A stretch of DNA of 64,000 nucleotides, taken from positions 38,603 through 102,602 of the IMG/VR virus record IMGVR_UViG_3300010234_000004. The stretch is one strand, 5' to 3'. Positions 8,418 to 46,313 of this stretch are shown piece after piece. The DNA comes from a virus. A model generated the notes under the pieces. That model ran no database searches. It saw only the letters and a program-made list of their open reading frames with translations, and had not been told where the DNA came from. Position 1 is the first letter of the stretch; the number at the start of each line of letters is the position of its first letter. The translations under genes were made by a program, and so were the position numbers.

Positions 8418-9383
8418 ATGTCGATTCGTACCACCGTTGAGCATAATGCCAGAGAAGTATCATTGCGCTACCCCCGCGTGGCCAGTCTTCTTCCTGATTA
8501 TTTTCCGAAACACTATCCGAATCTGGTAAACTTCCTTGAATCATATTACGAGCAATCTGCCGCTAATGATACGTTAGATCATACCTTCAATCAAAAGCTG
8601 TTTGCGATTCGTGATCTAGACGAGATATCTTTGGACTACATTGATAGCCTATTCTATGAAATCGGAAACGGTGCATCATCTGACTATTTCCAAGACCCAC
8701 GGTTTGTGGGTAAATTGCTTCCGTTACTACTTCGATCAAAGGGTACGGAACTTGGTATACAACTCTTTTTCAGGACGTTTTTCGGATTCAGTCCGGAAAT
8801 ACAGTATCCAAAACTTGACATGCTTGAAGTGTTTTCTGGCGATTCTGATGAAACGAATAAGGCTAGAATTGGTGTTGACGATGGTAAGGTTCTACAAAAT
8901 TCGGCCAAATACCAAAAGCTTTCAGTGTTGATCAGATCGGAGGCATCGTTCCTCGACTGGGAAAATCTGTATAGAAAGTTCGTTCACTCGGCTGGTTATT
9001 TTCTATCCTCAGAAGTAGTAACGGAAGGGGTTGCAAATGCCAATCCGCTTGCTAGTGTTTATCTTAACGATTTGGACTCATCCGAATACGGTGTCTTGAC
9101 GTTCGGTGAATTGGTAGAGCCTGTTGGTGATCAATTATCACAGTCTGAAGTTTACATCATACTGGAGTCTGATAACACTGAATTCCATCTTTCAACAGTT
9201 GATACTCTCGATAAATATAGCACCGTGCCGATTTCGTATATGGATACCCATTATGATGGACCTTATGCGGCGGCTGATCTCAATAGTCCACGTGTCGATC
9301 AGGATTCTGATGGAACCACCAAGATTATTGAAACCAGTACGACGCTCGAATTGGTCGATGCATCGCTTGTTGATTCGGCATAA
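8418..9383 (+). CDS. gp7: Baseplate wedge initiator gp7-like (short form)
   Basis: LPDYF..YPNLVNFLESYYE; SKGT..LFFRTFFG; FVHSAG; follows gp6. Confidence 0.75.
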   Translation: MSIRTTVEHNAREVSLRYPRVASLLPDYFPKHYPNLVNFLESYYEQSAANDTLDHTFNQKLFAIRDLDEISLDYIDSLFYEIGNGASSDYFQDPRFVGKLLPLLLRSKGTELGIQLFFRTFFGFSPEIQYPKLDMLEVFSGDSDETNKARIGVDDGKVLQNSAKYQKLSVLIRSEASFLDWENLYRKFVHSAGYFLSSEVVTEGVANANPLASVYLNDLDSSEYGVLTFGELVEPVGDQLSQSEVYIILESDNTEFHLSTVDTLDKYSTVPISYMDTHYDGPYAAADLNSPRVDQDSDGTTKIIETSTTLELVDASLVDSA

Positions 9384-9407
9384 TTATGAAATCCACCCTC
9401 CCGAAGG

Positions 9408-9415
9408 TATAAATA
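9408..9415 (+). promoter_or_regulatory. T4-type late promoter TATAAATA
   Basis: Exact gp55-dependent consensus, intergenic. Confidence 0.8.
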
Positions 9416-9440
9416 GATATAAGAGATAACGAGGCATTAC

Positions 9441-10223
9441 ATGAGTAGACAAGATATTTTTACCGGCACAACGGCCAATGACGGGACGGGTGAACCGTTA
9501 CGTGCTGCCCTTCAGAAGGTTAACCTCAACTTTGTTGAGTTATACCAGAGGCTTGGGATCGATTCTGACAACTTGGCCGCTATCGCCTTTGGTGACAGCG
9601 GGGATATAGTGTTCGAAGGTGGTTCGTTCAACACCACTCTGGAATTCGTGCAACCAACCGCGACCAGAACTGTTACTATTTCAGATGCTTCTGGAACGCT
9701 TGTTCTGGACACTGCCACACAGACACTCACTAATAAAATTCTAAATCTCCCTGACATTCACGATTCCGATAATAATGAGGTTATGAAGTTTGCGGGTGCC
9801 GCTTCAGCAGTCAACGCCATGACGCTCACGAACGCCGTAACAGGAAGTGCGCCGTCTCTTGCAACTACGGGAACCGATGCGAACATCAACTTGGATTTGA
9901 ACGCTAAGGGGTCTGGTGCAGTTGTCGTGGAGAAGGCCTCATTCGGACGTATTCAAATCACGGCCAACGGCGCAGTAAGTGTCAACAAAACTCACATTCA
10001 ATGTTTTAAGGCTACCGCACTGGCATTGACTATGGGTGACGGCACGGTTAACAGCGAAGTTAAATATTTCACCAATTCTGGAGCGGGAACTGCTACTGTC
10101 ACACCCACCAACTTCGCACTTGGAACGAATTTCGCTATACCACAAAATCACGCATGTCAGGTTATGTGGGACTCAGACAACTGGTTTGTTGTCGGTGCCA
10201 GCTCTGGCGTAATAATTACATAA
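9441..10223 (+). CDS. Baseplate wedge/tail-fibre connector (gp9/gp10 N-terminal motif)
   Basis: RQDIFTGTTANDGTGEPLRAALQKVNLNFVELY. Confidence 0.75.
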   Translation: MSRQDIFTGTTANDGTGEPLRAALQKVNLNFVELYQRLGIDSDNLAAIAFGDSGDIVFEGGSFNTTLEFVQPTATRTVTISDASGTLVLDTATQTLTNKILNLPDIHDSDNNEVMKFAGAASAVNAMTLTNAVTGSAPSLATTGTDANINLDLNAKGSGAVVVEKASFGRIQITANGAVSVNKTHIQCFKATALALTMGDGTVNSEVKYFTNSGAGTATVTPTNFALGTNFAIPQNHACQVMWDSDNWFVVGASSGVIIT

Positions 10224-10232: not shown

Positions 10233-11549
10233 ATGACCGCTATCCTCACTGATAATCTGAAGCGTGAGTTACTAGACCGGCTTCTAGCCTCAACAGATTC
10301 TGATAAATATTATATCGGTATCGGTCGTTCAGAACCATGGAACGATTCAGATATCGCTACTACTCCTGTCAATTGCCTATCAGACGTGAGAGGGTTCAGG
10401 ACTTCTATGCAGGCCGTCAAAATTGCACAGGATGTTACATTTTGCGTACCAAGAACCAATTGGGCATCTGGTACGACTTATGCGGCATATGATGACACAG
10501 TGTCGGGTCATACAACTCCATCATTTTTCGTATTCACCGATGAGAACAACGTTTACGCGTGTATAGAGCGCGGTAGAACCGCGTTAGGCGCAACGAAGGC
10601 CTCAACCATCAAGCCGACAGGACAGGCCACCTCGGCCTTCCAGACATCCGATGGGTACACTTGGAAATTCTTGTACACCATCACGACGGCGGTATCAACT
10701 AAATTTCTTTCATCGAATTTTATACCGGTTGAGTGGGTTGATTCGGATGAGGCCGCTGCTAACGTTGGTTCGGCACTCCAAAGAGCTGTTCAGACCGCTG
10801 CTACAGTAGGAGAGATTCTTTCGATTCCCGTCACTGCTGGTGGTTCGGGATACACCTCTGCACCGACTGTTACTATCAAAGGGAACGGGATCGGTGCTAC
10901 GGCCACTGCTACGATTGCTTCTGGCGCAGTAGTAAAAATTGAGATGGCTACTAGAGGGTCTGCATACGGATTTGCTGATGTGGCTATCACAGGCGGCGGT
11001 GGTTCGGGTGCGACGGCACGTGTAGTAATTGGTAACGCTGGTGGTTTTGGTTCCAATCCAGTTGATGATTTGAAGGCAAAGGCTCTAATGTTCAATATCA
11101 AGCCTGACGGTTTTGAAAATGAAGATTTTATCGTGGGTCAGGACTTCAGACAGATTGGCATCATCCAAAATCCCGAAGACTATGCTGGGACCGCATATGT
11201 AGGATCAACTGGTAGTACACTCAAAAAGATTGTGCTTTCGTCTCCAGGCGAAGCTGGAACGTTCGCCCTTGATCAGACATTCACGGGCAATACCACTTCG
11301 AATCAGGCATTGGTGGACTATATCGACTCAGACACGATTTTTTATCATCAAAATACGACTACTGGGTTCGGTTCATTTGACAGTGATGCTACTATTACTG
11401 CGCCGGGCGCGTCGGGCACGATCTCTCAACATATAGATAGTGCAGATGTTGATTTTATGTCGGGTAAGGTTTTGGTTGTCGACAACCGAAGCGCCATTAC
11501 GCGAGATGCGAATCAGACTGAAGATATCAAAGTAATTATCCAGATTTAA
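10233..11549 (+). CDS. gp8: Baseplate wedge subunit gp8
   Basis: YYIGIGRSEPW; VPRTNW; DGYTWKFLY; FRQIGIIQNP; QTEDIKVIIQI. Confidence 0.88.
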   Translation: MTAILTDNLKRELLDRLLASTDSDKYYIGIGRSEPWNDSDIATTPVNCLSDVRGFRTSMQAVKIAQDVTFCVPRTNWASGTTYAAYDDTVSGHTTPSFFVFTDENNVYACIERGRTALGATKASTIKPTGQATSAFQTSDGYTWKFLYTITTAVSTKFLSSNFIPVEWVDSDEAAANVGSALQRAVQTAATVGEILSIPVTAGGSGYTSAPTVTIKGNGIGATATATIASGAVVKIEMATRGSAYGFADVAITGGGGSGATARVVIGNAGGFGSNPVDDLKAKALMFNIKPDGFENEDFIVGQDFRQIGIIQNPEDYAGTAYVGSTGSTLKKIVLSSPGEAGTFALDQTFTGNTTSNQALVDYIDSDTIFYHQNTTTGFGSFDSDATITAPGASGTISQHIDSADVDFMSGKVLVVDNRSAITRDANQTEDIKVIIQI

Positions 11550-11559: not shown

Positions 11560-14500
11560 ATGACATCAAGCTACATACAAAATACATTCGAGAACGTCTA
11601 TAAGGATGATTATTCAGACAGCGCGGGTTTTCATCGAATCTTGTTTAATGCTGGCCGACCTGTTCAGGGTCGTGAACTTATTCAAGCACAGACAATCATC
11701 CAAAAAGAGATTAAGCGGTTTGGGGATAACATCTTCAAAGATGGGGGTGCTGTAAACCCCTCCCAAAACATTAAATGTAACACACGTCACCATTTCGTTA
11801 AGCTGTTGCCGTCAGATGATCCGACCACTGCAACACTTCTTACCACGTTCACTGGGGCAACATCTGGTGTGAGTGGTAAGCTGTTTGAATATAGAGAGAC
11901 TGAGCATGGTGATCCGCCAACGATCTTCGTACAATATACCGAAGGTGGTGGGGTTCTTGGAGTTAATAGTTTTACTGCTGGTGAAACAATCTCGAACGGC
12001 GCTGTCACATTTACAGTTCAGACAACCAATACTGAAGCTAATCCAGCGACTGGACGCTGTACCAAAATTTCAGTTGGTGATGGTGACTTCTACACACAAG
12101 GACATTTCACATATGGTGAAGCGCAGTCCCTGATTATCGACAAGTATTCACCATTCGGAACCGCCATTGTCGGTTTCAAGGTATCTGAATCTATCGTCTC
12201 TGCGACTGACGATATATCCCTCTATGATAACCAAGGCGATTTACCCAACCTGACCGCTCCGGGCGCTGATCGATATAAGATTAACTTAACACTGGTTAAC
12301 GATTCTGATGTTGCAGCCGAAGAAACATTCGTGTACATCGCCAACATTCAAAATGGTGAGGTGGTTCAGACCAACAATGGTCGTGATGACTATAACCGAA
12401 TTCTTGACCTTATGGCGGAACGCACGCATGAAGAATCTGGTAACTATGCGGTTCGACCTTTCTTTATTACTTTTGAAGCTGACAGTGCAGACACACACCT
12501 TCTGGTTAACACTCCTGCCAGCGTTGGGTATGTTGATGGATACCGCATTGAAACGCTGAATGAAAAGTTGCGGATTCCCAAACCTACATCCACAGAACTG
12601 GTAAACAACGACGGTGTTTCTGCCGAATATGGAAATTACCTGTTGGTCAACACCGTTGTCGGTCTTCCCGACCTGACCTCATATGAGAAGATCAATCTGG
12701 TCGATAGTGATGTTTATGCATCCGGTAATGTTATCGGAACCAGCCGCGTGCGGAGTATCGTGGACGAAGGTTCTGGGACATTCAAATTCTACATGTTCGA
12801 CACGAAAATGCATACTGGCAAAAACTTCCGTAGTGTGAAGGCTGTCGGTACTGGTGCCAGCAACAACGCTAAAATCACACTTGAAAGTAATGTCGCGGTT
12901 CTAAAAGATCGTAAAAATAGTAATCTACTTTTCTCCCTACCAAAAGAACGCCCGTCCTCCATTTCGGCGGCTGACTACACATATTCAGTTGTTCGACATG
13001 CATCTAAGACGGTTTCTACGAACACGATCACATTGACGAAGGGTACAGGCGAAAGCTTCACGTCAACCGATGAGTGGATTTTCACTGACCAAGGCGCAAG
13101 TGGTGTACAAATCACCGCAACAAACATTAACACAACGACAGGCTTGGTTACGTTCACGTCGGCCACTGGACCAGTTGACGCGGTTTACAATATTCAAAAA
13201 GGTGGGGTTGGTGCACCTACTCCCTACAAAACGAAAACGCTAAACGAATCCACAGTCACTGCATCCGTAACAACAGATTCCGATGGAACATATGTTGACT
13301 TAGGTAAGGTTGATATTTTCTCGGTGTCACGCGTGCGTGCAATCGACTCAGACGGTGCTGACCTTAGTTCGCGGTTCTATGTTGACAACGGACAAAGAGA
13401 CAACTATTACGATCATGGTCGCATGGTGGTTGCCCCTGGGACAGCTACTCCAGCGGGTAACGTATTTGTTCGATTTAAGCATTTCGATCATTCTGGTGTT
13501 GGTGACTTCTTCTGCATCAATTCCTATGATACGGTTTCTGATATTACATACGCAACGGTCCCAAGCCATCGCCAAACGAACGGTGAGACTGTTCCGCTGC
13601 GTGATGTTCTGGACTTCCGTCCTACTATTGACGACACTGGAACAGAATTTACAGGCACGGGTGGTCTGGTATCTGAACTCCCCCAAAATACTGATCTGGT
13701 GACCATTGATACCACGTATTACCTGCCACGTAAAGATCGGCTTCTTCTGAACCGCAGAGCCAAACTGTCATATGTTACTGGCGAGCCAGACTTTGATCCT
13801 AAGCCACCAAGCACAAATGACGCAATGCTCTTGTATGAAGTTGACATGCGACCCAACACGCTTAACGAACAAGATTTGGGTGTAGAATATATCGACAATC
13901 GCCGCTGGACAATGCGTGATATCAGCATTCTACACAAGAAAATTGAGGCGGTCGAAGAGACTGCGGTATTGAGCCTGTTGGATATTCAGGCGTCTACGCT
14001 TGAAGTTCTTGATAATGACGGCCTATCGCGTACTAAAGCCGGATTCCTGACTGACGATTTCAGAGACCATCGTGCAGCACGCGTGGATGATTTGGAATAT
14101 CGTGCAGCGATTGATCCTACGCAAGGCATCATGAGGCCAGCATTTCGTGAAAAGAATGTCGGACTGCTGTTTGATTCTGCTGACGGTGCAACGACTTCTA
14201 CGATTTTGAAATCCGATGCGGTTATGCTGGACTACACGGAAGAGTTGTTCATTAGTCAACCGCTTTGTTCAGGCACTGAAAACGTTAACCCGTATACAAT
14301 CATGTATTTTGAAGGCACATTGATTTTGTCACCGGCTTCCGACGAATCCCGTGACGTGGTAAACTTTAGCTTGCGCGGGGATCGCCGTAGTGAAATCGGT
14401 ATTGAAACGTTCCTCCAGCGTGTGCTTGGTCAGCAAGATACCAATTCGGTATTCGAAAACCTTACACGTAACCAGCGGTCGCAGTTTATTCGTAACAGAA

Positions 14501-16833
14501 TTTCAGTAGAAGAAGCGACCAATTTCACGTCTTCCGGCTCATTGGAAGAGGCTATCAACACGCTTCCCCCGCAACAGAACCAGATTTTGGCTCAGGTCTT
14601 CGATACAATTTCACCAACATGGCGTGAATACACGTGGGGTTGGGCTGGTATTGATAGAAGCGCCAATGGCTCGTCACAGGGTGTTGGACCCGGCGTCACA
14701 GACGGTTCAACGTTCGGACGTTTCGCCACTAGATTGTTTACCCCGCGTATTCGCGCACGTGAGATTCGTATGCGTGCGGTCGGGTTGCTTCCAAATGCAC
14801 GTCATTGGCCTTTCTTTGACGACATTGATGTTAGCAATTATTGTGTCCAGAACCAGCGTATCGGTGTTGGCGACTTCCCGTCCATTAACTGGGAGTTTTC
14901 AAGACGTGAGAGCAACTGGCAGTGGTCTGGCTTTAACGGTCGCCTTTTCCAGCGTGCACGTAGTAACAACTGGCACCCGTTTTGGGGAACCACAGCACCG
15001 ACAGATGAGCAAAAGTCTCTCATATCAAGTAGTAACGGAACTATCAATGCTTCGTTCTTCATGCCAAACAATGAGGAGCTTTGGTTCTGGTCTGGCGTAA
15101 AGGTTATGAAGTTGGTGGATGTTTCCGATGGCAACATCGACAACGCAGTATCTCATTGCAATGGCATCTACTCAGCCGAAGGATCAATTGATGTTCGGTG
15201 GAGAATCATTCCGCCGCCACCACCACCTCCTCCTCCACCACCACCTTCAGGCGGCGGTTCGGGTGTAGCATCTGGCAACCGCCCCGATCCAACAGGTTAC
15301 GGTGATCCTATTGCTCAGTCGTTTATGGTCGAAAACTCCGCTGGCGTGTTCATAACAAAAGTATCTGGATACTTCAAAGCTAAGGATGATACAATTCCCG
15401 TGGCCGCATTCCTTGTGCCAATGATGAATGGTTATCCCATGGGACTTTCGCCCTATGCGGGAGCGTATAAGGTTCTTGCACCATCTGAGGTTAATATCTC
15501 CGATGATGCGACTGCTGTCACGCATTTTGAATTTGATCGTCCGGTGTATCTCCCACCGGGAGAACATGCATTGATTTTCAAATCTAATTCATTTGATTAC
15601 AGGGTCTATATTTCTCGCGTTGGAGAGTTTGTCTTGGGTACGACCCTGAAGAAGATTACTAAACAGCCTACCTTTGGGTCTCTGTTCAAGTCGCAGAACT
15701 CATCTACATGGTCTGCGTCTCAGTGGGAAGACCTGAAAATGGATATCTATCGGGCCGAATTTGCGACGGACGGTGTTGCTATCTTCAAAAATGATGATTT
15801 TACATCTAAGCTTCTTGTACCAAATCCATTCCTATTCGATAGTGGGGATGCAACGGTTCGGGTTATCCATCCAAACCATAACTTGATGGTCAACGATGTG
15901 CAATATTTCCACGGTGTGGATAGTGCACAATCGTATCCTATGAGCGTCAATTCTATTGTGGGTAATCGCACGATTACGGCAGTTGATGGAACGGGTTATA
16001 CCTTTGAGGCTGATTCGGCTGCGACTAGCGATGCCAGAACCGGTGGTGAAGGTGTGTGGACTTGTGACAACCTCATGATGGACTTGGTAGTGCCTTCCAT
16101 TGACGTAGTTAACCAAATCGGTACTACTACTGCACTGAAAGGTAAATTTACATCAGGTAAGTCATTAGCTGGTCTCGAAACACCATATGGTCTGGAATCC
16201 ACATTCAGTCATAATCTTGTACCATATGAGGAATACCAGTTTAACGCTCCACGCATGGTGGTCGGTGAAGAACTGGAAGGTGAGGTCGGATATCCTACCA
16301 AATCGTCGTATGTTCAAGCCACATTACACACCGACAACACGTGGGTGTCTCCGGTGATTCACGCAGACAGATGTTCGTTGACTGGTATTCATAACCTGAT
16401 CGACAATCAAGATTCTGCTGCAACGGTTGGCTGGAATGTGCCGTTGAGTTACATCGATGAAACTGATCCATTCGGCGGCACACAGTTGGCCAAGTACGTC
16501 ACTAAGCCAGTCACCTTAGAGGAAGACGCAGTAGGCTTGAAGATCATCTACGCGGCCAACAGACCGTCTGTAGCGGGCATCAAGGTGTACTACAAGACGA
16601 TTGACGATGACGGTGATATCAACACTGAGCCATGGACGTTGATTGATCTGGAAGCTCCTATACGAAGCGACGAAGACCCTACGAAATTCAGGGAGCATCG
16701 TCACCTTGTTGGGGGGATTGCTGGATTGGATACACCATTCAATACGTTCCAAGTCAAAATTGTTATGACCTCAACCAACAGTTCTAAGGTTCCGGTATTC
16801 AGGGATTTCAGAGCAATTGCATTGACCATCTAA
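11560..16833 (+). CDS. Large virion structural protein, VrlC/DUF4815-like
   Basis: YKDDY..FHRILFNAGRPVQGRELIQAQ; APGADRYKI; RTHEESGNY; DPIAQSF; 1757 aa after gp8 as in cyanophage-type T4-likes. Confidence 0.8.
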   Translation: MTSSYIQNTFENVYKDDYSDSAGFHRILFNAGRPVQGRELIQAQTIIQKEIKRFGDNIFKDGGAVNPSQNIKCNTRHHFVKLLPSDDPTTATLLTTFTGATSGVSGKLFEYRETEHGDPPTIFVQYTEGGGVLGVNSFTAGETISNGAVTFTVQTTNTEANPATGRCTKISVGDGDFYTQGHFTYGEAQSLIIDKYSPFGTAIVGFKVSESIVSATDDISLYDNQGDLPNLTAPGADRYKINLTLVNDSDVAAEETFVYIANIQNGEVVQTNNGRDDYNRILDLMAERTHEESGNYAVRPFFITFEADSADTHLLVNTPASVGYVDGYRIETLNEKLRIPKPTSTELVNNDGVSAEYGNYLLVNTVVGLPDLTSYEKINLVDSDVYASGNVIGTSRVRSIVDEGSGTFKFYMFDTKMHTGKNFRSVKAVGTGASNNAKITLESNVAVLKDRKNSNLLFSLPKERPSSISAADYTYSVVRHASKTVSTNTITLTKGTGESFTSTDEWIFTDQGASGVQITATNINTTTGLVTFTSATGPVDAVYNIQKGGVGAPTPYKTKTLNESTVTASVTTDSDGTYVDLGKVDIFSVSRVRAIDSDGADLSSRFYVDNGQRDNYYDHGRMVVAPGTATPAGNVFVRFKHFDHSGVGDFFCINSYDTVSDITYATVPSHRQTNGETVPLRDVLDFRPTIDDTGTEFTGTGGLVSELPQNTDLVTIDTTYYLPRKDRLLLNRRAKLSYVTGEPDFDPKPPSTNDAMLLYEVDMRPNTLNEQDLGVEYIDNRRWTMRDISILHKKIEAVEETAVLSLLDIQASTLEVLDNDGLSRTKAGFLTDDFRDHRAARVDDLEYRAAIDPTQGIMRPAFREKNVGLLFDSADGATTSTILKSDAVMLDYTEELFISQPLCSGTENVNPYTIMYFEGTLILSPASDESRDVVNFSLRGDRRSEIGIETFLQRVLGQQDTNSVFENLTRNQRSQFIRNRISVEEATNFTSSGSLEEAINTLPPQQNQILAQVFDTISPTWREYTWGWAGIDRSANGSSQGVGPGVTDGSTFGRFATRLFTPRIRAREIRMRAVGLLPNARHWPFFDDIDVSNYCVQNQRIGVGDFPSINWEFSRRESNWQWSGFNGRLFQRARSNNWHPFWGTTAPTDEQKSLISSSNGTINASFFMPNNEELWFWSGVKVMKLVDVSDGNIDNAVSHCNGIYSAEGSIDVRWRIIPPPPPPPPPPPPSGGGSGVASGNRPDPTGYGDPIAQSFMVENSAGVFITKVSGYFKAKDDTIPVAAFLVPMMNGYPMGLSPYAGAYKVLAPSEVNISDDATAVTHFEFDRPVYLPPGEHALIFKSNSFDYRVYISRVGEFVLGTTLKKITKQPTFGSLFKSQNSSTWSASQWEDLKMDIYRAEFATDGVAIFKNDDFTSKLLVPNPFLFDSGDATVRVIHPNHNLMVNDVQYFHGVDSAQSYPMSVNSIVGNRTITAVDGTGYTFEADSAATSDARTGGEGVWTCDNLMMDLVVPSIDVVNQIGTTTALKGKFTSGKSLAGLETPYGLESTFSHNLVPYEEYQFNAPRMVVGEELEGEVGYPTKSSYVQATLHTDNTWVSPVIHADRCSLTGIHNLIDNQDSAATVGWNVPLSYIDETDPFGGTQLAKYVTKPVTLEEDAVGLKIIYAANRPSVAGIKVYYKTIDDDGDINTEPWTLIDLEAPIRSDEDPTKFREHRHLVGGIAGLDTPFNTFQVKIVMTSTNSSKVPVFRDFRAIALTI
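15211..15246 (+). repeat. Poly-proline (P12) coding tract
   Basis: Run of CCN codons in the VrlC-like gene. Confidence 0.9.
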
Positions 16834-17039
16834 TGGCCACTATGAAGATAAAAGAGCAGCCACATCTTGTAAAGGATGTGGCCTCTGGTGCAGTTATAAA
16901 TACTAACAAGGACGAAATCCTTTCGGCCAAAAAGCGTAAGGCTGCACGCATGGCGGAAAAGGAACGTATAAATAACTTAGAGCATGAAGTGGAAGAGATG
17001 CGTGAAATCATCAAAATGCTTATCAGGGAAACCAAATGA
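16833..17039 (+). CDS. Small conserved protein downstream of the VrlC-like gene
   Basis: LVKDVASGAVINTN plus coiled-coil tail; contains two TATAAATA boxes (16895, 16967). Confidence 0.65.
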   Translation: MATMKIKEQPHLVKDVASGAVINTNKDEILSAKKRKAARMAEKERINNLEHEVEEMREIIKMLIRETK

Positions 17040-17515
17040 CACAGATTACCAGTAATGATACATTCGCTGAGTGGATCACACAATATAACAGCCTAGATTC
17101 TGATTTTAGAACGGGCGGATTGACTCGTACATCGATTAGTGTCGCGGACACTGGTGGATTGGGCGGATTGTCTTATAACTCCGTGACCGGCATCATCACT
17201 TATACTGGAGCGTCAGATTCTGATGTGAGAAATCTATTCTCGGTCGGCTCTGGATTAACGTATGATAGTGCTACCGGACAGTTCGACGCGACGGTCGTGA
17301 ATAACGCGTCGGAAACTGTCTTGGGTATTGCATCATTCGATTCTGACGCTTTCACTGTCACCGCTGGTCATGTTTCATTGGACGCTTTGACAATCACTAC
17401 TTCTCAGATTGCGACCGATGCAGTAACTGCCGCTAAGCTCTCTAATTTGACAACACTGGTCGTGTATAATTCGGCTGGGTCTGCGGTGAAAACACTATAC
17501 GGAGCGGGAAGCTAA
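17036..17515 (+). CDS. Fibre/baseplate accessory structural protein
   Basis: NDTFAEW N-terminus, SYNSVTGIITY and AVTAAKL fibre repeats. Confidence 0.6.
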   Translation: MTQITSNDTFAEWITQYNSLDSDFRTGGLTRTSISVADTGGLGGLSYNSVTGIITYTGASDSDVRNLFSVGSGLTYDSATGQFDATVVNNASETVLGIASFDSDAFTVTAGHVSLDALTITTSQIATDAVTAAKLSNLTTLVVYNSAGSAVKTLYGAGS

Positions 17516-17521: not shown

Positions 17522-19102
17522 ATGACTGCAAGAACCCCCTTAAAACTGGACTCTGATAACTCGCTGATCGAAATGACGGCTGGGGAAATTGGTAGGATTG
17601 TCAGGCACTGTAAATACCTCTATGGCCTAAATCCATCAGTGGGTGTTAAGTGGATTGATTCTTCGGGTACGCTTGGAACCCTGACGGATACCCGCGTTAT
17701 TGCTGGTGTAATGTCCAATGATAACGCTTCCTTTCCCAATGAGACGACGACGGCTGAACCTGGGTCGACCTCTAATGATTATGCACGAATGAGTGATAGT
17801 GCTGTCTCAGCAACGGTGGCCACTCCAGATACAAATAATCTGGCGTTCCCATGTTACCAAATTGCGGGTAACATTTACGCTATGACGGATTCAGATTTGT
17901 ATGATACCTTTATCCACCCTGCTATAACAGAATTGGTGGACGGTACAGATCAACCCGGCACATTTAGAATTCACACGGCCAGTACTTTGGCCGGTCACAC
18001 AGTTATTGGCGGTTCGAAATCAGTTGTATCGGTTCCAACGTTCGTATCCAGCCAGACATCGTCAACCACATCAATGACCTATCCAAGCGGGATTCAGGCC
18101 AATGATATAATTGTATTTGCACAGTGTCAGGATACCGTTGGCACTTATGCCGTTCCGACGGATACGGTTACGGGAACCTATACACAATCTGAAGGTTATA
18201 ATTCAGATAACCCATCATTTCAAATATGCTATAAAGTGGCCAACGGTGATGAATCTGGTACTACTCTCTCATGGTCTGAGTCGTCTTCGGCAACAATATG
18301 TCAGGTTTGGAGAGGGTGTGATTACGCTGGCACTCCACTAGAAATCGGAACCAGAAAAGGTTCATCCGGATCAACATACAACTGGAATTATGTCACCACA
18401 ACGACAGATAATAACACCATCCTCCAATTCATGTTTCTGGATGATGATAACACGACTATCAGCTTTGGGGATGCAAGTTCAACCAATGTGATCACGCTGG
18501 GAAGAACCGCTGCATCTATTGGTAGTGCTGCAAATTTTCAGAGATATGCAGGCACACACCAACCGCCTAATTCCACTGGTACAGCCGACGCATACCAGAC
18601 ACAAGTAGTCGTTTTGCGTGGTGAGACTGTCACCGAAACCACGAATCCGGTATTTCTTGATTCGCGTGCCGATACTACAATGTACTCGGCGGGTGGTATT
18701 GGTGAACAGCTTGATCAGCCTGTGACGGTAACTGAATTTTACCTCATGCAGACGGATGCTGACTCCGACGAAACTTTTCCCTTGCCTGTTTATATCAGGA
18801 CTGATCTGGACTCGGCGGCTCAAAGCTGGGTTGGTATTCAGGAGTTCGATTCGGCCAGTATCAGCGACATTTTCAGTAACAGCATTCGCCATGTTGCAAC
18901 GTCCGTATCACCATCGATTATTTCATATAACATAGACGGTGCAGGGAATAATAGAGGATCAGGCATCACTGATACCATCTTAACAGGCGGCTCTGGCACC
19001 CGCGTCACCCGACAAGTCGACGACGATTATCGTGCCCAAGAACTTCCGGATGGAACGCCATCGACTGCAACCACATCATATCTACGTATCACGAAGGCAT
19101 AA
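17522..19102 (+). CDS. Virion structural protein, T/S/D-rich, with an inserted beta-rich domain
   Basis: 526 aa in the structural operon; YRAQELPDG C-terminal motif. Confidence 0.55.
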   Translation: MTARTPLKLDSDNSLIEMTAGEIGRIVRHCKYLYGLNPSVGVKWIDSSGTLGTLTDTRVIAGVMSNDNASFPNETTTAEPGSTSNDYARMSDSAVSATVATPDTNNLAFPCYQIAGNIYAMTDSDLYDTFIHPAITELVDGTDQPGTFRIHTASTLAGHTVIGGSKSVVSVPTFVSSQTSSTTSMTYPSGIQANDIIVFAQCQDTVGTYAVPTDTVTGTYTQSEGYNSDNPSFQICYKVANGDESGTTLSWSESSSATICQVWRGCDYAGTPLEIGTRKGSSGSTYNWNYVTTTTDNNTILQFMFLDDDNTTISFGDASSTNVITLGRTAASIGSAANFQRYAGTHQPPNSTGTADAYQTQVVVLRGETVTETTNPVFLDSRADTTMYSAGGIGEQLDQPVTVTEFYLMQTDADSDETFPLPVYIRTDLDSAAQSWVGIQEFDSASISDIFSNSIRHVATSVSPSIISYNIDGAGNNRGSGITDTILTGGSGTRVTRQVDDDYRAQELPDGTPSTATTSYLRITKA

Positions 19103-19105: not shown

Positions 19106-19660
19106 ATGAAGAATTTAGATTTTGTAACGGCACGCTTCACCGACAACGATAGAAAAACCATCCTATCGACTTGGACCGATGGAACAAGGGTCGTTGAAAC
19201 TTATTGTGAGGCTGCTGACAGGGACGCGCAGTACAGAGACCTTATCGCCAACCATTGCACACTAGACCAGATTCATGAAAACACGTGGACGTGGATTGGC
19301 CGTAGTCGCGAAGAGATAGATGATTATATCATTTCAATCGGTAAGAAGCGGGGAATGATCACCTCAGTTGGTGACGGTCTGACTGGTGACGTTTGGCATC
19401 TAATCACCAAGGCCTTGTTCACCGAAGACGTGGATAAGGAACAATTGTTCCTATTGAAGCTGGAGCTTTTTGAACTCGATTTCATCAAGGCGTGTAAAGA
19501 TCGTGGCCTGAAATCCAAGTTGCGGAAAGCCAAAACGGTATTAGAATCTATCAGTCTGGCAACAGAAATTCGGAATACCAAGGAAGAGGAGCCTGCTCCG
19601 AAGAAGAAGGCACCCGCGAAGAAGCGGAAGCCTCGCGCATCAAATCGTGTCTCTGATTAA
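19106..19660 (+). CDS. Hypothetical protein
   Basis: 184-aa ORF; EQLFLLKLELFE; overlaps convergent GT gene by 110 nt. Confidence 0.55.
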   Translation: MKNLDFVTARFTDNDRKTILSTWTDGTRVVETYCEAADRDAQYRDLIANHCTLDQIHENTWTWIGRSREEIDDYIISIGKKRGMITSVGDGLTGDVWHLITKALFTEDVDKEQLFLLKLELFELDFIKACKDRGLKSKLRKAKTVLESISLATEIRNTKEEEPAPKKKAPAKKRKPRASNRVSD

Positions 19661-20162
19661 ATAGATAAACGTCAAATTCATCTGAAGGCTCTGTGACTGT
19701 TTGGAAAGTGCAGTAACGATCTACCCTGCCATATCGATTGTATCCTATATTTTCGAATAGGAACTGATCCATACCAAGGCGGTATTTGAACAGATAATAC
19801 TCAGGGTCTTCCATAAACTTTTCATAAATGTATGACTGATCCCCCTTCCAAGATATGATATCTGAGCAGATCGGGGTATGGAAGGCGTTTCTCCACCAAG
19901 CATAACAGGTCGTCAAATCGCTTCTCAAGAAGTGATTACAGTCCCCCTTGATGATCACGTCAAGGTCAAAATAGATGTTCTGGCCGTCCCTGTACTTGTC
20001 AAACATCAACAGCTTGTTGAACACGCCATCATATAAGTCCTCATCCATTACTACGAATTCGTCATAGTTCAGACCCGAATATGTGTCCACCATATGGCGA
20101 AGATTGTCCTCCCACCATTTATCGAATTTCGTACCTGTACGCACGCAAATCACCCGAAGCAT
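19551..20162 (-). CDS. GT-A fold glycosyltransferase
   Basis: VICVRTGTKF; NKLLMF; YFDLDVII (DxD); MDQFL. Confidence 0.75.
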   Translation of the reverse strand: MLRVICVRTGTKFDKWWEDNLRHMVDTYSGLNYDEFVVMDEDLYDGVFNKLLMFDKYRDGQNIYFDLDVIIKGDCNHFLRSDLTTCYAWWRNAFHTPICSDIISWKGDQSYIYEKFMEDPEYYLFKYRLGMDQFLFENIGYNRYGRVDRYCTFQTVTEPSDEFDVYLFNQRHDLMREASASSRVPSSSEQAPLPWYSEFLLPD

Positions 20163-20968
20163 TGATCAAATTCCTTATTTACCATATGTGCCAGATAGCA
20201 CGATTGTTTGTTCAGGGTTCCGCTCTCGACAATAAAATTCCATGCCATGCTCAACTCATTGTGCGGAACGTTATTACTTTCAATTAAAAACGTCATGAAA
20301 CATTCGTTATTCGGTGTGAAGTGTTTGGATATGCGTCCATCGAAGAGTGTATCATCGATAGCCTCATGAACCAGATCGGTCATGAATTGCATGTTCTCCT
20401 TGAATTTCAACTTCTTTACTACTTCACGACCAGCAGCGATAACCCCCGTGTTGAAGACGTAGTCATGTCCCACGACATCATGTTCAATCATCATCATGCT
20501 TTTTTTGGCGGCAATCTTACAATACACGTTCATGGGGTCGAAATCTATTGTGTCCATGTAATTTGGGACACGCCATTTGACATGCATATTATCTCGTTCA
20601 GCCGGTCGGCCATTTCCCCCCACGTTCCCATAGTATTTGTATAGAGGGAGCATATTCATTTCATTCAAATTCACCATATCGAATATGCATGGTGCATCAT
20701 TCATTGGAATCACGTCGAAGTCGAGATACAACAGTTCATCAAACTCATTGGCCAGTTCTTCAAGAAGGCATACCTTATCCATCTGAATGTCGGGGTATTG
20801 GCTCGATTCGGTAGAGAGCAACCGATACTCAGCACCCATATTTTTTGCATATTGCGCCTGACGTTCCTCGATTTGTGTAGCATACTTCTTCATCTGATCG
20901 ATCTTGAATGATGGTTGATGGCTTGGAGCCATGTCATCATTCCATATGCTGTAGACGATTCTTTTCAT
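20150..20968 (-). CDS. GT-A fold glycosyltransferase (GT8/GT34-like)
   Basis: LLYLDFDVIP; FNTGVI; WNFIV; HMVNKEF; paralogue of 20937-21833. Confidence 0.75.
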   Translation of the reverse strand: MKRIVYSIWNDDMAPSHQPSFKIDQMKKYATQIEERQAQYAKNMGAEYRLLSTESSQYPDIQMDKVCLLEELANEFDELLYLDFDVIPMNDAPCIFDMVNLNEMNMLPLYKYYGNVGGNGRPAERDNMHVKWRVPNYMDTIDFDPMNVYCKIAAKKSMMMIEHDVVGHDYVFNTGVIAAGREVVKKLKFKENMQFMTDLVHEAIDDTLFDGRISKHFTPNNECFMTFLIESNNVPHNELSMAWNFIVESGTLNKQSCYLAHMVNKEFDQCFG

Positions 20969-21833: not shown

Positions 21834-21859
21834 GAAGAATCCTTTCATGACTACTTAGC

Positions 21860-21912: not shown

Positions 21913-22275
21913 GTGGCTGTATATGAAGATTTGAGCATTGATCAGGGATCGGATGTGGCCATTGAGTTGCACTTGACGTTGGACAATGGGTCGAAGAAAG
22001 ATTTAACCGGATTTAGCGCTGCCGCGAAGATGAAGAAGTCATACACGTCATCTGATTCTGACGCGGTGTCATTTAATGTGACATTCCCTAATCCAAGAAC
22101 CGACGGAGTATTGGTTCTTAGCCTTACAAACACAGAATCAGATGCTTTAAAACGCGGCAAGTATCTATATGACGTTGAAATTTCATATGTCGACTCCGAT
22201 GCAAACACGATTGTAGAACGGGTTCTTGAGGGTCGCGCAACAGTTAATCAGAGCATTACGAGGCTTCAGTCATGA
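21913..22275 (+). CDS. Ig-like fibre attachment/adaptor protein
   Basis: DLSIDQGSD..DLTGFSAAAKMKKSY..YLYDVEI..RVLEG, a common phage fibre-locus protein. Confidence 0.65.
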   Translation: MAVYEDLSIDQGSDVAIELHLTLDNGSKKDLTGFSAAAKMKKSYTSSDSDAVSFNVTFPNPRTDGVLVLSLTNTESDALKRGKYLYDVEISYVDSDANTIVERVLEGRATVNQSITRLQS

Positions 22276-35210: not shown

Positions 35211-37034
35211 ATGGCTAAATTAGGTGCACCAATACCTGCCAATTCGCCTGCTGTAAATTTTCGTGAGATTGATCTTACTGGCCGCGTCGGTGACGTACCA
35301 AGTTCAGTATCAGCAATCGCGGGAAATTTTGCTTGGGGTCCAGTCGGAGTTCCGACTTTGGTAGCTGACGAAACCACCCTTGTACGACGGTTCGGACAAC
35401 CGAATTCCGTTAATACAATTGATTTTCACTCCGCCGCTATGTTCCATAAATATTCGGATACTCTGAATGTTATTCGCGAACTGGACGGCGATTCCGCTGG
35501 CACTACGCCAGCACGTAACGCGTATGCAATCACTTCACCATCTGCGGCCCTGTTGGTCAAGAACAATGCTGAGTTTGACCTGCAAGTGGCTACTTTGGAT
35601 AACTTCGCTGGTGACAGTGCTGGTGATCCTTTATTTGTTCGTGGTCACAGCGTGATTGCTGCTTATCCCGGCGCTTTGGCTAACGGCCTTGAAGTTAGTA
35701 TTTGCCCTGGAGATTCCGATGGAACGGTATTTGCTGCTTGGGAATTTGCTGATCAGTTTGACGCTGCTCCTGGCACTTCCTCTTATGCTTCTAACCGTGA
35801 TGGTTCATGGGATGAGATTCATGTAGTAGTGGTTGACCGTGACGGTAAAGTATCCGGCACGAAAAACACTATCCTTGAGCGTTATCCATACGTCTCAGCA
35901 GCTTTCGACGGTAAGACCGCCGATGGTGCTACATCGTATGTCAAGAACGTTATTAATAACCAATCATCGTACATCAAGTTCGTAAGCTTTGGCTCTAGCC
36001 TCGCATTCGATTCTGATGCGTGGGGATTATCTTCAACGCTTGGCACCTCTACTACTCCGGGTACTCCGAAAACGTTTACTGACGGCTTGGCTGTTAAAAC
36101 GTGGACGTTGGCTGCTGGTGTAGATGGAACAACGTTGCAGGCCGCTGATTATATCCGCGCTTTTGCTACAGTTGACGATATCGAAACCACTGACGTTGAT
36201 ATTCTCATTGCACCCGGCATGACCTCGCGTGCAGATCAGGATTTGGTATGTGAATATATGCTTTCTATCGCTAAAGATATTCGTAAAGACTGTGTTGTTG
36301 TGACATCACCAAACCGTAGTGCAATCGTAAACCAGATTCCGGCCAACATCGTTGACCGTTGTGTTGAATTCGCTAATGGAATGAGCAATTCTTCATATCT
36401 GATTATCGATGCTCAGTACGTTAAAGTCTACGACAAGTATCGCGATGAATACATCTTTATCCCCGCTGCCTCTTCTGTTGCTGGCCTCATGGCTGCATCC
36501 GAAAAGCTGTTCGGCGCATGGTATTCACCCGCCGGTCGTCGTCGTGGTGTTTTGCGTGGTATCGATGATATCGCTTGGAACCCGCGTTTATCACAACGTG
36601 ACACTCTATACAAAGCTGGTATGAACCCGATCATTCAACAGACTGGTCAGGACGTTCAACTTTTCGGTGATAAGACTAAACTCCAGCGTCCAAGTGCATT
36701 CGACCGAATTAACGTTCGTCGTCTGTTCCTGAAGCTTGAGAAGGACATCATCAGATACGCGCATAACATCCTCTTTGAATTCAACGATGAGTTTACTCGC
36801 GCAGAATTTGTTGGGGTTGTTGACCCATATCTCCGTGATGTTCTGGCACGTCGTGGCATCTATGACTACACAATTGTCTGTGATGAAACAAACAACACCC
36901 CAGAGGTGATCGACAACAACCAGTTTGTAGCAAGCATCTTCGTGAAGCCTGCCCGCTCGATCAACTTCATCACGCTTAACTTCGTTGCAGTCCGTACCGG
37001 TGCTTCTTTCGAAGAAGTCGTTGGCTTGGTATAA
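35211..37034 (+). CDS. gp18: Tail sheath protein
   Basis: SPAVNFREIDLT; FAWGPV; WYSPAG; LFGDKT; FDRINVRRLF; FEFNDEFTR; KPARSINFITLNF. Confidence 0.97.
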   Translation: MAKLGAPIPANSPAVNFREIDLTGRVGDVPSSVSAIAGNFAWGPVGVPTLVADETTLVRRFGQPNSVNTIDFHSAAMFHKYSDTLNVIRELDGDSAGTTPARNAYAITSPSAALLVKNNAEFDLQVATLDNFAGDSAGDPLFVRGHSVIAAYPGALANGLEVSICPGDSDGTVFAAWEFADQFDAAPGTSSYASNRDGSWDEIHVVVVDRDGKVSGTKNTILERYPYVSAAFDGKTADGATSYVKNVINNQSSYIKFVSFGSSLAFDSDAWGLSSTLGTSTTPGTPKTFTDGLAVKTWTLAAGVDGTTLQAADYIRAFATVDDIETTDVDILIAPGMTSRADQDLVCEYMLSIAKDIRKDCVVVTSPNRSAIVNQIPANIVDRCVEFANGMSNSSYLIIDAQYVKVYDKYRDEYIFIPAASSVAGLMAASEKLFGAWYSPAGRRRGVLRGIDDIAWNPRLSQRDTLYKAGMNPIIQQTGQDVQLFGDKTKLQRPSAFDRINVRRLFLKLEKDIIRYAHNILFEFNDEFTRAEFVGVVDPYLRDVLARRGIYDYTIVCDETNNTPEVIDNNQFVASIFVKPARSINFITLNFVAVRTGASFEEVVGLV

Positions 37035-43936: not shown

Positions 43937-44011
43937 AACCTGTGGCTATAACTGAGACAGAAATGTTAGTATTTCCTCTCGTATAATCACTAGATTAAAG
44001 GAGTTACCAAT

Positions 44012-44911
44012 ATGGAAGATCATATTGAGACTGACGCCAACGAGAACGAAGTTCTGGAAATGGCAACTAAACACGACGAACAGAACGCTGAAAAGCATTC
44101 TGAAAACGCGACCGATGAGGCCGCTAAAAAAGTAAAGAAATCTGCTTCTAAGCGCAAAGGTGACAAAGGTTCGCAAGACCCTATGGCAGCAAGCGTGAAG
44201 GAAGACCTCGCAGCTTTGGTTGACGGGGAAGCCACACTTTCAGAAGACTTCAAAGAAAAGACTGCTGTCCTTTTCGAAGCTGCTGTTCAGGCCAAAATCT
44301 CTGAAGAGATTGAGCGTCTGGAAGAAAGCTACGAAGAGCGCCTTGCAGAGGAAGTCGAAGAAACTCACGCCAAAATGGTTGACAGTGTGGACAGCTTTCT
44401 TAACCACGTGGTCGAAAGTTGGATGGACGACAATAAAGTCGGCATCGAACAGGGTATCCGTACTGAAATCGCTGAGAACTTCATCGTAGGCCTTAAAGGT
44501 CTGTTCGATGAGTCTTACGTGGATGTTCCGGAATCTAAATTCGATCTCGTTGATGAACTTGCAGAGAAAGTTGAAGAGTTGGAAGCATCTCTCAACGAAG
44601 AAATGGAAGGCGCAATGCGTCTTGCGGAAGCCAACGAAGAATTGGTCCGTGAAATGGTTTTGCTCGAATGCAGTGAAGGTCTTGTTGATACGCAAGCCGA
44701 AAAACTGGCCATTCTGGCTGAAACTGTTGATTTCGAATCTGCTGAAACTTTCCGCGACAAGGTGGAAATCATCAAAGAGTCTCATTTCTCAGTAGCAACC
44801 CACGATGCTGTAAGCATTCAGGAAGGTGTTGACGAAGACTTGGACGAAGAAGTCATCGTTGAAGAAACCGACCCGCGTATGGCCTCTATTCTTAAAGCAC
44901 TCAGAGGCTAA
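44012..44911 (+). CDS. gp22: Prohead scaffold protein
   Basis: LSEDFKEKTAVLFEAAV; very acidic coiled coil; precedes MCP. Confidence 0.93.
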   Translation: MEDHIETDANENEVLEMATKHDEQNAEKHSENATDEAAKKVKKSASKRKGDKGSQDPMAASVKEDLAALVDGEATLSEDFKEKTAVLFEAAVQAKISEEIERLEESYEERLAEEVEETHAKMVDSVDSFLNHVVESWMDDNKVGIEQGIRTEIAENFIVGLKGLFDESYVDVPESKFDLVDELAEKVEELEASLNEEMEGAMRLAEANEELVREMVLLECSEGLVDTQAEKLAILAETVDFESAETFRDKVEIIKESHFSVATHDAVSIQEGVDEDLDEEVIVEETDPRMASILKALRG

Positions 44912-44942
44912 TCCCTCTCTCCAAAATAAGGAAAATGACGAC

Positions 44943-46313
44943 ATGACTAAAGCAACATACAGTGAATTGAAAGCCAAATGGTCTTCAGTTCTTAACGAAG
45001 AAGCCGCTGGTGAAATCCGCGACGACTATCGTAAAAGCGTAACCGCACGTCTTCTGGAAAACCAAGAAGAAGTTTCCATGCTTGAGCAGGAAGCTGTCAA
45101 CTACTTGGCAGAAGATGGCCAGAACAACACCACCGCTGTGACCGGCGCTGGTACTGCTAACTGGAACCCAGTTCTTATGGCTCTGGTTCGCCGTGCAATG
45201 CCTAACATGATGGCTTATGACCTTGCGTCTGTTCAGCCTATGACTGGTCCTACAGGCCTCGTGTTCTGCATGAAGTCGAAGTACAAAACCACTAAAGCTG
45301 GCGTTTCCGCTGGTGATGAAGCACTGTTTAACGAGCCAGCAATCGGTTATGCCGCTGACTCTTCTACTACTGCTAATGGTGGAACTTCAGGTCTTGCTGG
45401 TCTTACTGATGACTCCTCAACTGGTCTCCGCACCGTTGACTCGTCTATCGATGACTCCCGTACTGGCCCGACTCTTCCAGATCGCTATTCCACTGTTGAA
45501 ATGGAAGGCCTTGGCGCTACTGGTAACGAAGCATTTGCTGAAATGGGCTTCACCATCGACAAAGCAACTGTTACTGCTGAAGGCCTCGCGCTGAAAGCTG
45601 ATTACACCATCGAAATGGCACAGGACTTGAAAGCTATCCACGGTCTCGAAGCAGAGCGTGAACTGGCCAACATCCTGACTTCAGAAATCTTGGGTGAGAT
45701 TAACCGTACCGTTGTACGTACAATCAACTCTCAGGCTAAAACTGGTTGCCTTCAGGCCAACACTGCAATCAACGGTATCTTCGACTTGTCGACCGATGCT
45801 GATGGTCGTTGGTCGGTTGAAAAGATCAAAGGCTTGATCCTTCAGATCGAACGTGAGTGTAACGTTATCGCCAAAGAAACCCGTCGTGGTAAAGGCAACA
45901 TCGCTGTTGTATCCTCCGACGTTGCTTCTGCTTTGGCTGCTTCTGGCATGTTGGACTACGCTCCTGCAATGTCAACTCAGTTGAACGTTGATGACACTGG
46001 TAACACCTTCGCTGGCGTGCTGAACAAGAAGATCAAAATTTATGTTGATCCTTATGCAGACGTTGACTACATCACTGTAGGCTATAAAGGCACATCCGCA
46101 TACGACGCTGGTGTATTCTACTGCCCATACGTTCCATTGACCATGGTTCGTGCTGTTGGTGAGAACGACTTCCAGCCACGTATCGGCTTCAAAACCCGTT
46201 ACGGTATGGTATCCAACCCATTCGTTGGCGCTACGCCAGCTAACGGTCTGGCTGCTGCTAAGACTAACCAGTACTACAGAATCTTCCGCGTTGATAACCT
46301 GCTGGCTTCCTAA
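44943..46313 (+). CDS. gp23: Major capsid protein
   Basis: LLENQE; LVRRAMP; VQPMTGPTGL; AQDLKAIHG; FYCPYVPL; FQPRIGFKTRYG. Confidence 0.98.
   Translation: MTKATYSELKAKWSSVLNEEAAGEIRDDYRKSVTARLLENQEEVSMLEQEAVNYLAEDGQNNTTAVTGAGTANWNPVLMALVRRAMPNMMAYDLASVQPMTGPTGLVFCMKSKYKTTKAGVSAGDEALFNEPAIGYAADSSTTANGGTSGLAGLTDDSSTGLRTVDSSIDDSRTGPTLPDRYSTVEMEGLGATGNEAFAEMGFTIDKATVTAEGLALKADYTIEMAQDLKAIHGLEAERELANILTSEILGEINRTVVRTINSQAKTGCLQANTAINGIFDLSTDADGRWSVEKIKGLILQIERECNVIAKETRRGKGNIAVVSSDVASALAASGMLDYAPAMSTQLNVDDTGNTFAGVLNKKIKIYVDPYADVDYITVGYKGTSAYDAGVFYCPYVPLTMVRAVGENDFQPRIGFKTRYGMVSNPFVGATPANGLAAAKTNQYYRIFRVDNLLAS

Follow-up and report, generated by a model that had tools for sequence, protein, structure and literature searches.

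The question raised by this locus is what a single tripeptide, Asp-Ser followed by either Asp or Ala (D-S-[D/A], in the following DS[DA]), does at dozens of sites in the tail proteins of an uncultured marine phage. The DNA analysed, in the following called the window, is a stretch of 64,000 nucleotides that corresponds to bases 38603-102602 of the 102.6-kb IMG/VR-type viral record IMGVR_UViG_3300010234_000004 (CheckV completeness 63%); the whole record is referred to as G000. Its source is a T4-like marine myophage, whose tail sheath shares at most 42% identity with those of isolates (Pelagibacter phage Mosig, Methylophilales phage Melnitz and cyanomyophages) and whose nearest GenBank record, judged by the baseplate protein gp8, is the Kyanoviridae record Phage C48C1 at 37%. 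An earlier interpretation made from the letters alone (the sequence-only reading) had proposed that DS[DA] directs O-glycosylation of the virion. The motif proved to be real, strict, confined to outward-facing tail proteins and lineage-specific. The lineage also carries soluble glycosyltransferases (GTs) of its own. It is credible, though unproven, that DS[DA] marks the points at which the phage attaches a sugar coat of its own making to the tail.

For the statistics, a baseplate/fibre block of 13 plus-strand proteins (8418-26982, 5129 amino acids (aa)) was compared with the other 137 open reading frames of the 102.6-kb genome. Within the block, 53 of 65 Asp-Ser (DS) dipeptides continue into DS[DA], a share put at 16% by composition (binomial p = 9e-31). 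Outside the block, the genome has 10 such cases among 100 DS (Fisher p = 2.5e-21 against the block). Per-protein shuffles gave 31 observed DSD against 2.8 expected (z = 17) and 22 DSA against 3.1 (z = 11), and these two are the most enriched recurring tripeptides, with only PPP coming near (z = 16). The sequence-only reading had called for such a composition-controlled comparison of tripeptides, and the enrichment persists in it. Altogether 62 DS[DA] were counted where 7.4 are expected, and in the outer baseplate, fibre and neck proteins the motif reaches about ten times its chance frequency. The motif is selected at the protein level and does not reflect a DNA word, because all six serine codons (TCT, TCC, TCA, TCG, AGT and AGC) are used. 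Nor is it a repeat artefact, since look-alike flanks surround only 5 of the 62 sites and the other 57 have unique flanks.

To which proteins the motif belongs was derived from a rebuilt gene set. PHROG and Pfam scans support the labels gp6, gp7-like, gp9/10-like, gp8, VrlC-like, fibre proteins, gp13 to gp15, protease, scaffold and capsid; the sheath label comes from tblastn, and those of TerL, tube and portal from homology to annotated C48C1 genes. The proteins carrying the motif (in the following, tagged proteins) are all encoded on the plus strand. They begin with the gp7-like baseplate wedge protein (8418..9383, 321 aa, three DS[DA]), the gp9/gp10-like baseplate-fibre connector (9441..10223, 260 aa, three DSD and one DSG) and the baseplate wedge protein gp8 (10233..11549, 438 aa), whose six sites are all kept in the closest relative. 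In the giant VrlC-like structural protein (11560..16833, 1757 aa), all 11 DS precede D, A or G, namely ten DS[DA] and one DSG. Then follow two structural proteins (17036..17515, 159 aa, four sites; 17522..19102, 526 aa, six sites), a fibre-assembly-like protein (21913..22275, 120 aa, two DSD), a fibre protein (22544..24094, 516 aa, three sites), a tail fibre protein (24137..25441, 434 aa) with nine sites, three of them within a repeated unit, and three small fibre-region proteins (25438..26982, starting at 25438, 25772 and 26137) of 106, 121 and 281 aa with two, two and three sites. Beyond the block, the head closure protein gp14 and the sheath stabiliser gp15 (30068..31731, starts 30068 and 30964) hold two DSD each, and the tail sheath (35211..37034) holds four DS[DA], which fall within its indel-rich variable regions and at positions that differ between relatives.

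No DS[DA] was found in gp6 (start 6575), gp13 (start 27678), TerL (32081), the tube (37047, where the DS dipeptide is missing altogether), the portal (37655, DS followed by F, I, T, I and L), the prohead protease (43193), the scaffold (44012) or the major capsid protein (44826, DS followed by S, S, S and R), nor in gp5, gp25, gp48 and gp53 upstream of the window or at its start, and non-structural proteins are free of it as well. The sequence-only reading had counted this correctly: its 15 per-protein entries from the gp7-like protein to the sheath matched exactly, as did its description of the VrlC-like protein and its zeros for portal, TerL, tube, gp6, gp13, protease and scaffold, to which the major capsid protein can be added. 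Its statement that the phage coats its particle was too wide. Since capsid, portal and tube are free of the motif, the tagged set is the host-facing tail periphery and not the whole particle. The same split between tagged and untagged proteins was observed in the orthologs of five motif-positive relatives (G005, G006, G009, G002 and G007, in the case of G007 for the proteins present in its record). The tagged set does vary among relatives, as the VrlC-like protein of G007 has no site, unlike a 4427-aa fibre-like protein of the same record (L108:704-13987). This latter protein contains about 106 Asp-Ser, nearly all followed by A, D, G or S, and a run of 15 consecutive DSD-containing repeats.

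Each position of the motif is strict. At the first position, neither Glu (3 ES[DA] observed, 3.9 expected) nor Asn (7 NS[DA], 5.4 expected) shows enrichment. At the second, Thr is avoided, with one DT[DA] against 8.2 expected, an eight-fold depletion. At the third, where Asp is the commonest residue, DS followed by I, L, V, T, F or M was found twice against about 16.6 expected, and DS followed by any residue except D or A 12 times against about 31. The flanking positions carry at most 0.45 bit each, that is, practically no preference.

This strictness bears on the alternative that survives best, in which DS[DA] is a structural or ion-binding loop element, for instance a binding site for Ca2+/Mg2+ or, where a strand ends, an Asx or ST turn, which the lineage would favour because it keeps the particle stable in sea water. 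Its serine would stay unmodified, and the glycosyltransferases discussed below would serve another end such as the remodelling of host lipopolysaccharide, which agrees with the literature, where such GT islands are interpreted as host O-chain modification (PMC7029224). Thr, Asn and Glu would however be expected to be acceptable in a turn or metal site, and Ala as the sole alternative to Asp at the third position is unlike metal binding. Several structural observations do point in its direction. In the AlphaFold2 model of gp8 (predicted local distance difference test (pLDDT) score 81.5), the one protein for which the sites were mapped onto a model as the sequence-only reading had suggested, all six tagged serines lie in coil or turn, mostly right at strand ends. 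For exposure this placement offers only modest support, as about half of gp8 is coil. Furthermore, DSDG occurs several times among the sites, and one DSD of gp15 is ancestral, being present also in the motif-poor phage C48C1. C48C1 also encodes a 1568-aa connector/fibre protein (L012:15242-19948) with helical-looking repeats of about 88 residues, in which DS[D/E/A/K] stands at fixed positions and reads like a helix N-cap; Asp-Ser would there have a purely structural function, and could be confused with the tag.

More insight was gained from the comparison of relatives. The closest one (L001/G001, 57% protein identity) shows the same pattern, and in its aligned orthologs 71% of the window sites are still DS[DA], compared with an exact conservation of 22% for background 3-mers. 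At 42-47% identity, 23-37% of the sites are retained against a background of 11-12%, and the partners at this distance have sites of their own that are absent from the window, 16-25 in G005, G006 and G009 and 4 in G002. Thus sites are conserved at about three times background, with positional turnover between relatives. Some shift by 2-4 residues within a loop, e.g. at columns 281/285 and 693/695 of the VrlC alignment, and Asp and Ala, otherwise a rare substitution, interchange at the third position. Motif-negative relatives have unrelated residues at the homologous positions. A short linear motif that is recognised by a trans-acting factor should combine conservation, turnover and maintained density in this way, a fold-specific structural element should not, and DS[DA] accordingly appears to behave as such a motif. 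Sites that hop between neighbouring positions and non-homologous loops, with repeats accounting for only five of them, speak against the turn or metal site, as do the unrelated residues of the negative relatives. Overall, we regard the structural explanation as unlikely.

The spread of the motif was evaluated by an unbiased ranking of tripeptides in 80 IMG/VR loci, which were chosen solely because they hold a homolog of GT8-A, a glycosyltransferase gene of the fibre region described below. DSD or DSA is within the top four enriched tripeptides in 20 of 24 independent positive loci and ranks first in 13; L023, for example, has 45 DSA where 2.8 are expected, and L036 has 36 where 3.5 are. No tripeptide of this kind emerged from the 15 loci scored negative from their flanks, two of which (L022 and L040) are positive elsewhere in the record. 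In some clades the third position is relaxed to D, A, S or G. The isolates are negative, with DS[DA]/DS ratios of 4/41 in Mosig, 8/46 in HTVC008M, 4/48 in P-HM1 and 7/41 in S-RIM8, and in C48C1 the ratio for gp8 and VrlC is 0/10, with DSD runs in two fibre proteins only.

In the sequence-only reading, the enrichment was expected to accompany the GT genes of the phage. This holds for one set of genes and fails for another: the motif is not tracked by the GT genes that lie among the fibre genes, and is tracked by a separate cassette of four minus-strand genes. The cassette consists of a GT25 glycosyltransferase (48664..49353), a miniature transferase resembling GT42 (Cst-I/II sialyltransferase) and Maf proteins (57011..57625, 204 aa), a GT-A protein with weak likeness to Nucleotid_trans directly upstream of the latter (57631..58299, 222 aa) and a GT25-like glycosyltransferase (60659..61312, 217 aa). 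When whole records were compared, the GT25, GT25-like and GT-A genes, along with a GT8 gene upstream of the window (GT8-C, L140:990-1766), were common to the positive records G000, G005 (complete), G006 and G009, and none of the four was found in C48C1 (complete) or in G008 (58% complete). The 204-aa protein falls outside this positive-only set because, besides G005, G006 and G009, C48C1 has it too (39% identity). The four cassette genes are contiguous in G005, G006, G009 and G024 and split in the window.

The association was also approached from the side of the enzyme. The family of the 204-aa protein occurs in at least 523 IMG/VR contigs. Among eight long records with a gp8 module that were chosen only by this gene, seven are motif-positive and one, G057, is not. 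Regarding gp8 and VrlC orthologs, 11 of 12 cassette-bearing records show DS[DA]/DS between 0.39 and 0.94; four complete cassette-free isolates pool to 8/67, and all four are motif-negative. Among 40 fragmentary records selected by GT8, the GT42/Maf-like gene was detected in one, these records being too short for an absence to inform.

The 204-aa protein received particular attention. A profile of 40 relatives, drawn from 1.8 billion representatives, matches Cst-I (2P2V) at E = 2.9e-5 and Cst-II (1RO7, 1RO8 and 2DRJ) at E = 2-5e-4, while a profile of five sequences against the PDB sequences gave nothing useful. The alignment spans about 135 N-terminal residues including the motifs GNGPS (GNGKS in the window protein) and SG...GxD; the C-terminal 70 residues do not align to Cst, and no Pfam family was found at E <= 0.01 for the 40 relatives. 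The likeness to Maf is fainter. In G000, PF01973 (Maf, MptE-like) has no match at E <= 1, the G006 ortholog attains 12.4 bits where the curated cut-off is 34.6, two of five orthologs reach E >= 0.05, and in the Atlas neighbour cluster PF01973 is present in only 13% of members. Because of the match of the 40-relative profile to Cst-I/II, the protein is probably best described as a miniature GT42/sialyltransferase-like, Maf-related transferase of CMP-sugars (cytidine monophosphate sugars).

From these observations we infer a modification of the serine, its glycan nature, the initiating enzyme and a purpose, as follows. D-S-[D/A] would serve as a sequon, a short tag that marks acceptor serines in exposed loops of outer baseplate, VrlC-like protein and fibres, and more weakly of neck and sheath. 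A soluble transferase encoded by the phage and made in the infected cell would modify the serine hydroxyl, and the product would be a short O-linked glycan, built by the two GT25-like enzymes, the GT-A enzyme and the miniature GT42/Maf-like CMP-sugar transferase with sugar nucleotides of the host as donors. The exclusion of Thr, Glu and Asn and the choice between Asp and Ala at the third position would then mirror the acceptor pocket of the initiating enzyme. The glycan may, for instance, shield against proteases, improve solubility or adjust how the tail adheres to cell surfaces. That the serine is modified by a soluble phage transferase, most likely with a short O-glycan built by the cassette, seems to us almost evenly balanced between true and false, leaning by a hair to the latter. 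The wider proposition is possible and a little more doubtful: a large uncultured marine T4-like clade would run its own cytoplasmic, sequon-directed serine O-glycosylation, with DS[DA] on exposed, host-contacting tail loops written by the four-gene cassette from host sugar nucleotides.

A number of observations weigh against glycosylation by the cassette. The association of cassette and motif is confounded by phylogeny, because all the compared records are relatives of one another. G057 holds the whole cassette, yet only 1 of 15 DS in its gp8 and VrlC proteins is DS[DA]. C48C1, the only GenBank phage record found to contain the GT42/Maf-like gene, has that gene alone and has DSD in just two fibre proteins, and a search of the motif-positive G007 (a 53%-complete record) did not reveal the cassette. 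Only weakly can the cassette genes be assigned to families, with Pfam scores at or below the cut-off for three of the four, and the combination of GT25 and GT42 resembles the outer-core enzymes of lipo-oligosaccharide and could remodel the host envelope instead, the role published for the GT islands of pelagimyophages (PMC7029224). The promoters count against the proposal as well. The window contains seven exact late-promoter-like octamers TATAAATA, all on the plus strand (1.9 expected), at 9408, 16895, 16967, 21876, 27646, 35152 and 42833. Five of them lie just upstream of late structural genes, and those at 16895 and 16967 about 65-140 bases before the gene at 17036. None of the GT genes has a TATAAATA late promoter in front of it; they occupy the minus strand of a region that contains sigma70-like promoters. 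Lastly, genes for CMP-nonulosonate synthesis (CMP-nonulosonate synthetase, NeuB) were not found in these phages; the donor would therefore have to be a CMP-sugar of the host, which is speculation on our part.

The promoters bear equally on a second alternative, namely that DS[DA] is a recognition site for something other than a glycan. This could be phosphorylation or a different acyl or phospho-ester modification, for which a phage or host enzyme so far unrecognised would be responsible, or the binding of a decoration or chaperone protein. GT genes that lack late promoters fit this, and a strict serine in an acidic context would also suit an acidophilic serine kinase or a phosphotransferase. 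Many genes specific to positive genomes have no assigned function, e.g. L140:6645-7781 (378 aa) and L139:14923-15654 (243 aa), which likewise speaks for it. However, no kinase or other transferase family was found among the genes common to positive genomes; those with an assignment are glycosyltransferase-like or PhoH, and several have no family hit. Glycosylation of a minimal DSD, on the other hand, has a precedent (PMC8561734). We consider a recognition site of the non-glycan type decidedly unlikely.

If the tag is glycosylated as proposed, its writers might still be other than the cassette. The sequence-only reading had counted about nine GT-like genes in the window, three of them among the fibre genes, and had connected the latter with the motif. 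The count was roughly right: transferase-like genes number eight in the window, including three within the fibre region on the minus strand, and the genome has a further two upstream, although one of the counted genes is TET-associated and more likely modifies DNA. The fibre-embedded trio consists of GT8-A (20937..21848), its paralog GT8-B (20150..20968), a retaining enzyme of GT-A fold, both with a DxD motif, and a small GT-A-like protein of 203 aa (19551..20162), for whose 221-aa candidate paralog the Atlas match was obtained; all three are on the minus strand. In its favour as writer of the tag, the pair GT8-A/GT8-B (20150-21848) sits between fibre operons, after the VrlC-like gene, at a position conserved across about 80 loci, and GT8-B occurs mostly in positive loci. 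In addition, the GT8-B model (pLDDT 90) has as its best PDB match A64R of the virus PBCV-1, a builder of capsid glycan (E = 5e-6, template modelling (TM) score 0.5-0.6), followed by GT6 and GT8 enzymes.

The distribution of the trio nevertheless disagrees with that of the motif. GT8-A is present in at least 373 IMG/VR contigs, many of them motif-negative and pelagiphage-like, and the small GT-A-like gene occurs in positive and negative relatives alike. A search for GT8-B in five incomplete positive records (G055, G058, G060, G063 and G065) did not find it, and the 36-kb contig G010, fully motif-negative, does have it; with this, GT8-B was ruled out as an enzyme that tracks the motif. Among gene families within 10 kb of GT8-A on the GT strand, none separates positive from negative loci, and the two families that do discriminate the loci are the motif-bearing structural proteins themselves, i.e. 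clade markers. The trio as writer of the tag is thus highly unlikely. Finally, a chance or compositional artefact, for which only the D-, S- and A-rich composition of the fibre proteins could be cited, has practically no probability left and is already refuted by the shuffle and Fisher values given above, by replication in dozens of independent contigs and by absence from equally D-, S- and A-rich homologs.

Some further features of these GT genes and of the surrounding genome should be added. GT8-B and the upstream GT8-C have no counterpart in GenBank phage isolates except for a 25% match in Mosig, and a profile search of PDB sequences with the GT8 alignment gave nothing useful. In L014/L015 (records G002 and G003, with a relaxed motif) the GT8-A homolog contains one in-frame TGA, which may mean that the gene is broken, that the codon is recoded or that the sequence is in error. 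The TET-associated glycosyltransferase (51981-53183, minus strand, PF20691, E = 9e-31) suggests glycosylated hypermodified DNA bases, so that at least one GT of the window is probably not protein-modifying. The genome has two radical SAM/SPASM enzymes, at 59661-60662 of the window (minus strand) and at L139:2990-4081; the first is located between the GT25-like gene and a gene resembling Glu/Leu/Phe/Val dehydrogenases (58478-59449), in the same minus-strand enzyme island as the cassette. Upstream of the window, G000 encodes on the minus strand an 884-aa protein (L139:12243-14897) with a C-terminal ADP-ribosyltransferase exoenzyme domain (PF03496, E = 3e-17), for which no homolog was found in related records; as other positive genomes lack it, it was dropped as a candidate writer of the tag. 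Within the late structural operon, an HD-domain protein (29193-29741, PF13328 HD_4, E = 5e-19) is encoded between gp13 and gp14; a separate remark of the sequence-only reading took it for a possible alarmone hydrolase. Between portal and prohead protease (39342-42794) there are at least four genes, the first for a 302-aa collagen-like/tail-fibre-like protein (PHROG E = 2e-50) and the following for proteins of 196, 202 and 380 aa without a family hit. This block looks like an insertion into the head module, since it has no tblastn match in ten related T4-like records or record fragments.

No published description of the DS[DA] motif was found in the literature searched. Should the proposed glycosylation be true, the minimal O-sequon DS[DA] would be the first of its kind from a virus, and glycosites could be predicted from sequence, straight from metagenomes, in hundreds of ocean phage genomes. 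It would mean that myophages abundant in the ocean cover with sugar the portion of their particle that makes contact with the host, and the GT islands of marine T4-like phages, so far tied to remodelling of the host envelope, might then have another function too. A further gain would be a compact set of soluble O-glycosylation tools that needs only a minimal tag. Even with an unglycosylated serine, a strict tripeptide under selection at dozens of sites per virion, in at least dozens of related contigs, is an unexplained constraint on the evolution of tails.

It remains to compare these findings with known systems, beginning with the enzymes. The 204-aa family shares with the Campylobacter enzymes Cst-I and Cst-II (GT42; PDB 2P2V, 1RO7) the N-terminal nucleotide-binding motif GNGPS and SG...GxD; it is far shorter (about 200 aa), its C-terminal half, to which the catalytic region of Cst-II corresponds, is unaligned, and the phage has no genes for CMP-sugar synthesis. 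Maf proteins O-glycosylate Ser/Thr of flagellin in the cytoplasm; the similarity of the 204-aa family to Maf (PF01973) stays below threshold. In the case of GT8-B, PBCV-1 A64R (PDB 2P6W, 2P72, 2P73) is likewise a virus-encoded cytoplasmic GT-A enzyme, and the glycan on which it acts is carried by a virion protein. As a match it is weak (TM about 0.5-0.6, 11% identity), A64R belongs to a eukaryotic virus with N-linked glycans, and GT8-B does not track the motif. GT8-rich islands in the tail-fibre module of pelagimyophages and cyanomyophages have been assigned to host O-chain modification, with no motif of structural proteins mentioned (PMC7029224, Zaragoza-Solas et al. 2020). The trio at 19551-21848 represents a small version of such an island; here, though, it is not the island GTs that follow the motif, and a separate cassette does.

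The proteins of T4-like phage tails assemble in the cytoplasm. This would set the tagged proteins apart from the substrates of the Bacteroidota O-glycosylation system, which the sequence-only reading had drawn on as a parallel. There, the sequon is D-(S/T)-(A/I/L/V/M/T, also S/C/G/F), only exported periplasmic proteins are modified, and Asp at the third position is not reported (PMC8550257). Both sequons comprise three residues starting with Asp, with the glycan on the second residue (here as a proposal), and DSA fits both. Since Thr and hydrophobic third residues, both accepted in Bacteroidota, are excluded in the phage, and since that system requires its substrates to reach the periplasm, the parallel is a poor match.

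Regarding phages, virion glycosylation by their own glycosyltransferases is known in mycobacteriophages, according to work cited in PMC12582341 (Freeman et al. 2023). The present phage resembles these in encoding its own GTs. In mycobacteriophages, the modification reportedly sits on Ser/Thr-rich tails at the C-termini of capsid and tail-tube subunits and follows no strict sequon. Capsid and tail tube are both motif-free here, where a strict tripeptide marks baseplate and fibre proteins of a T4-like phage instead.

Another comparison is with staphylococci, where SdgB O-GlcNAcylates a minimal DSD tripeptide (PMC8561734) and SdgB and SdgA act on Ser-Asp repeat adhesins (PMC3794999, PMC8561734). 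SdgB is a GT-B (GT4) enzyme, and a PF00534 search of the whole 102.6-kb record (63% complete) gave no match for this class at E <= 1. Its substrates are long tandem SD repeats, whereas the phage has single sites scattered in unrelated loops, and Ala is an equally good third residue in the phage. As in the system proposed here, SdgB/SdgA combine a soluble glycosyltransferase, a minimal Asp-Ser-Asp acceptor, which is also the top tripeptide of this phage, and a surface-exposed adhesive target, and a second enzyme extends the product of the first.

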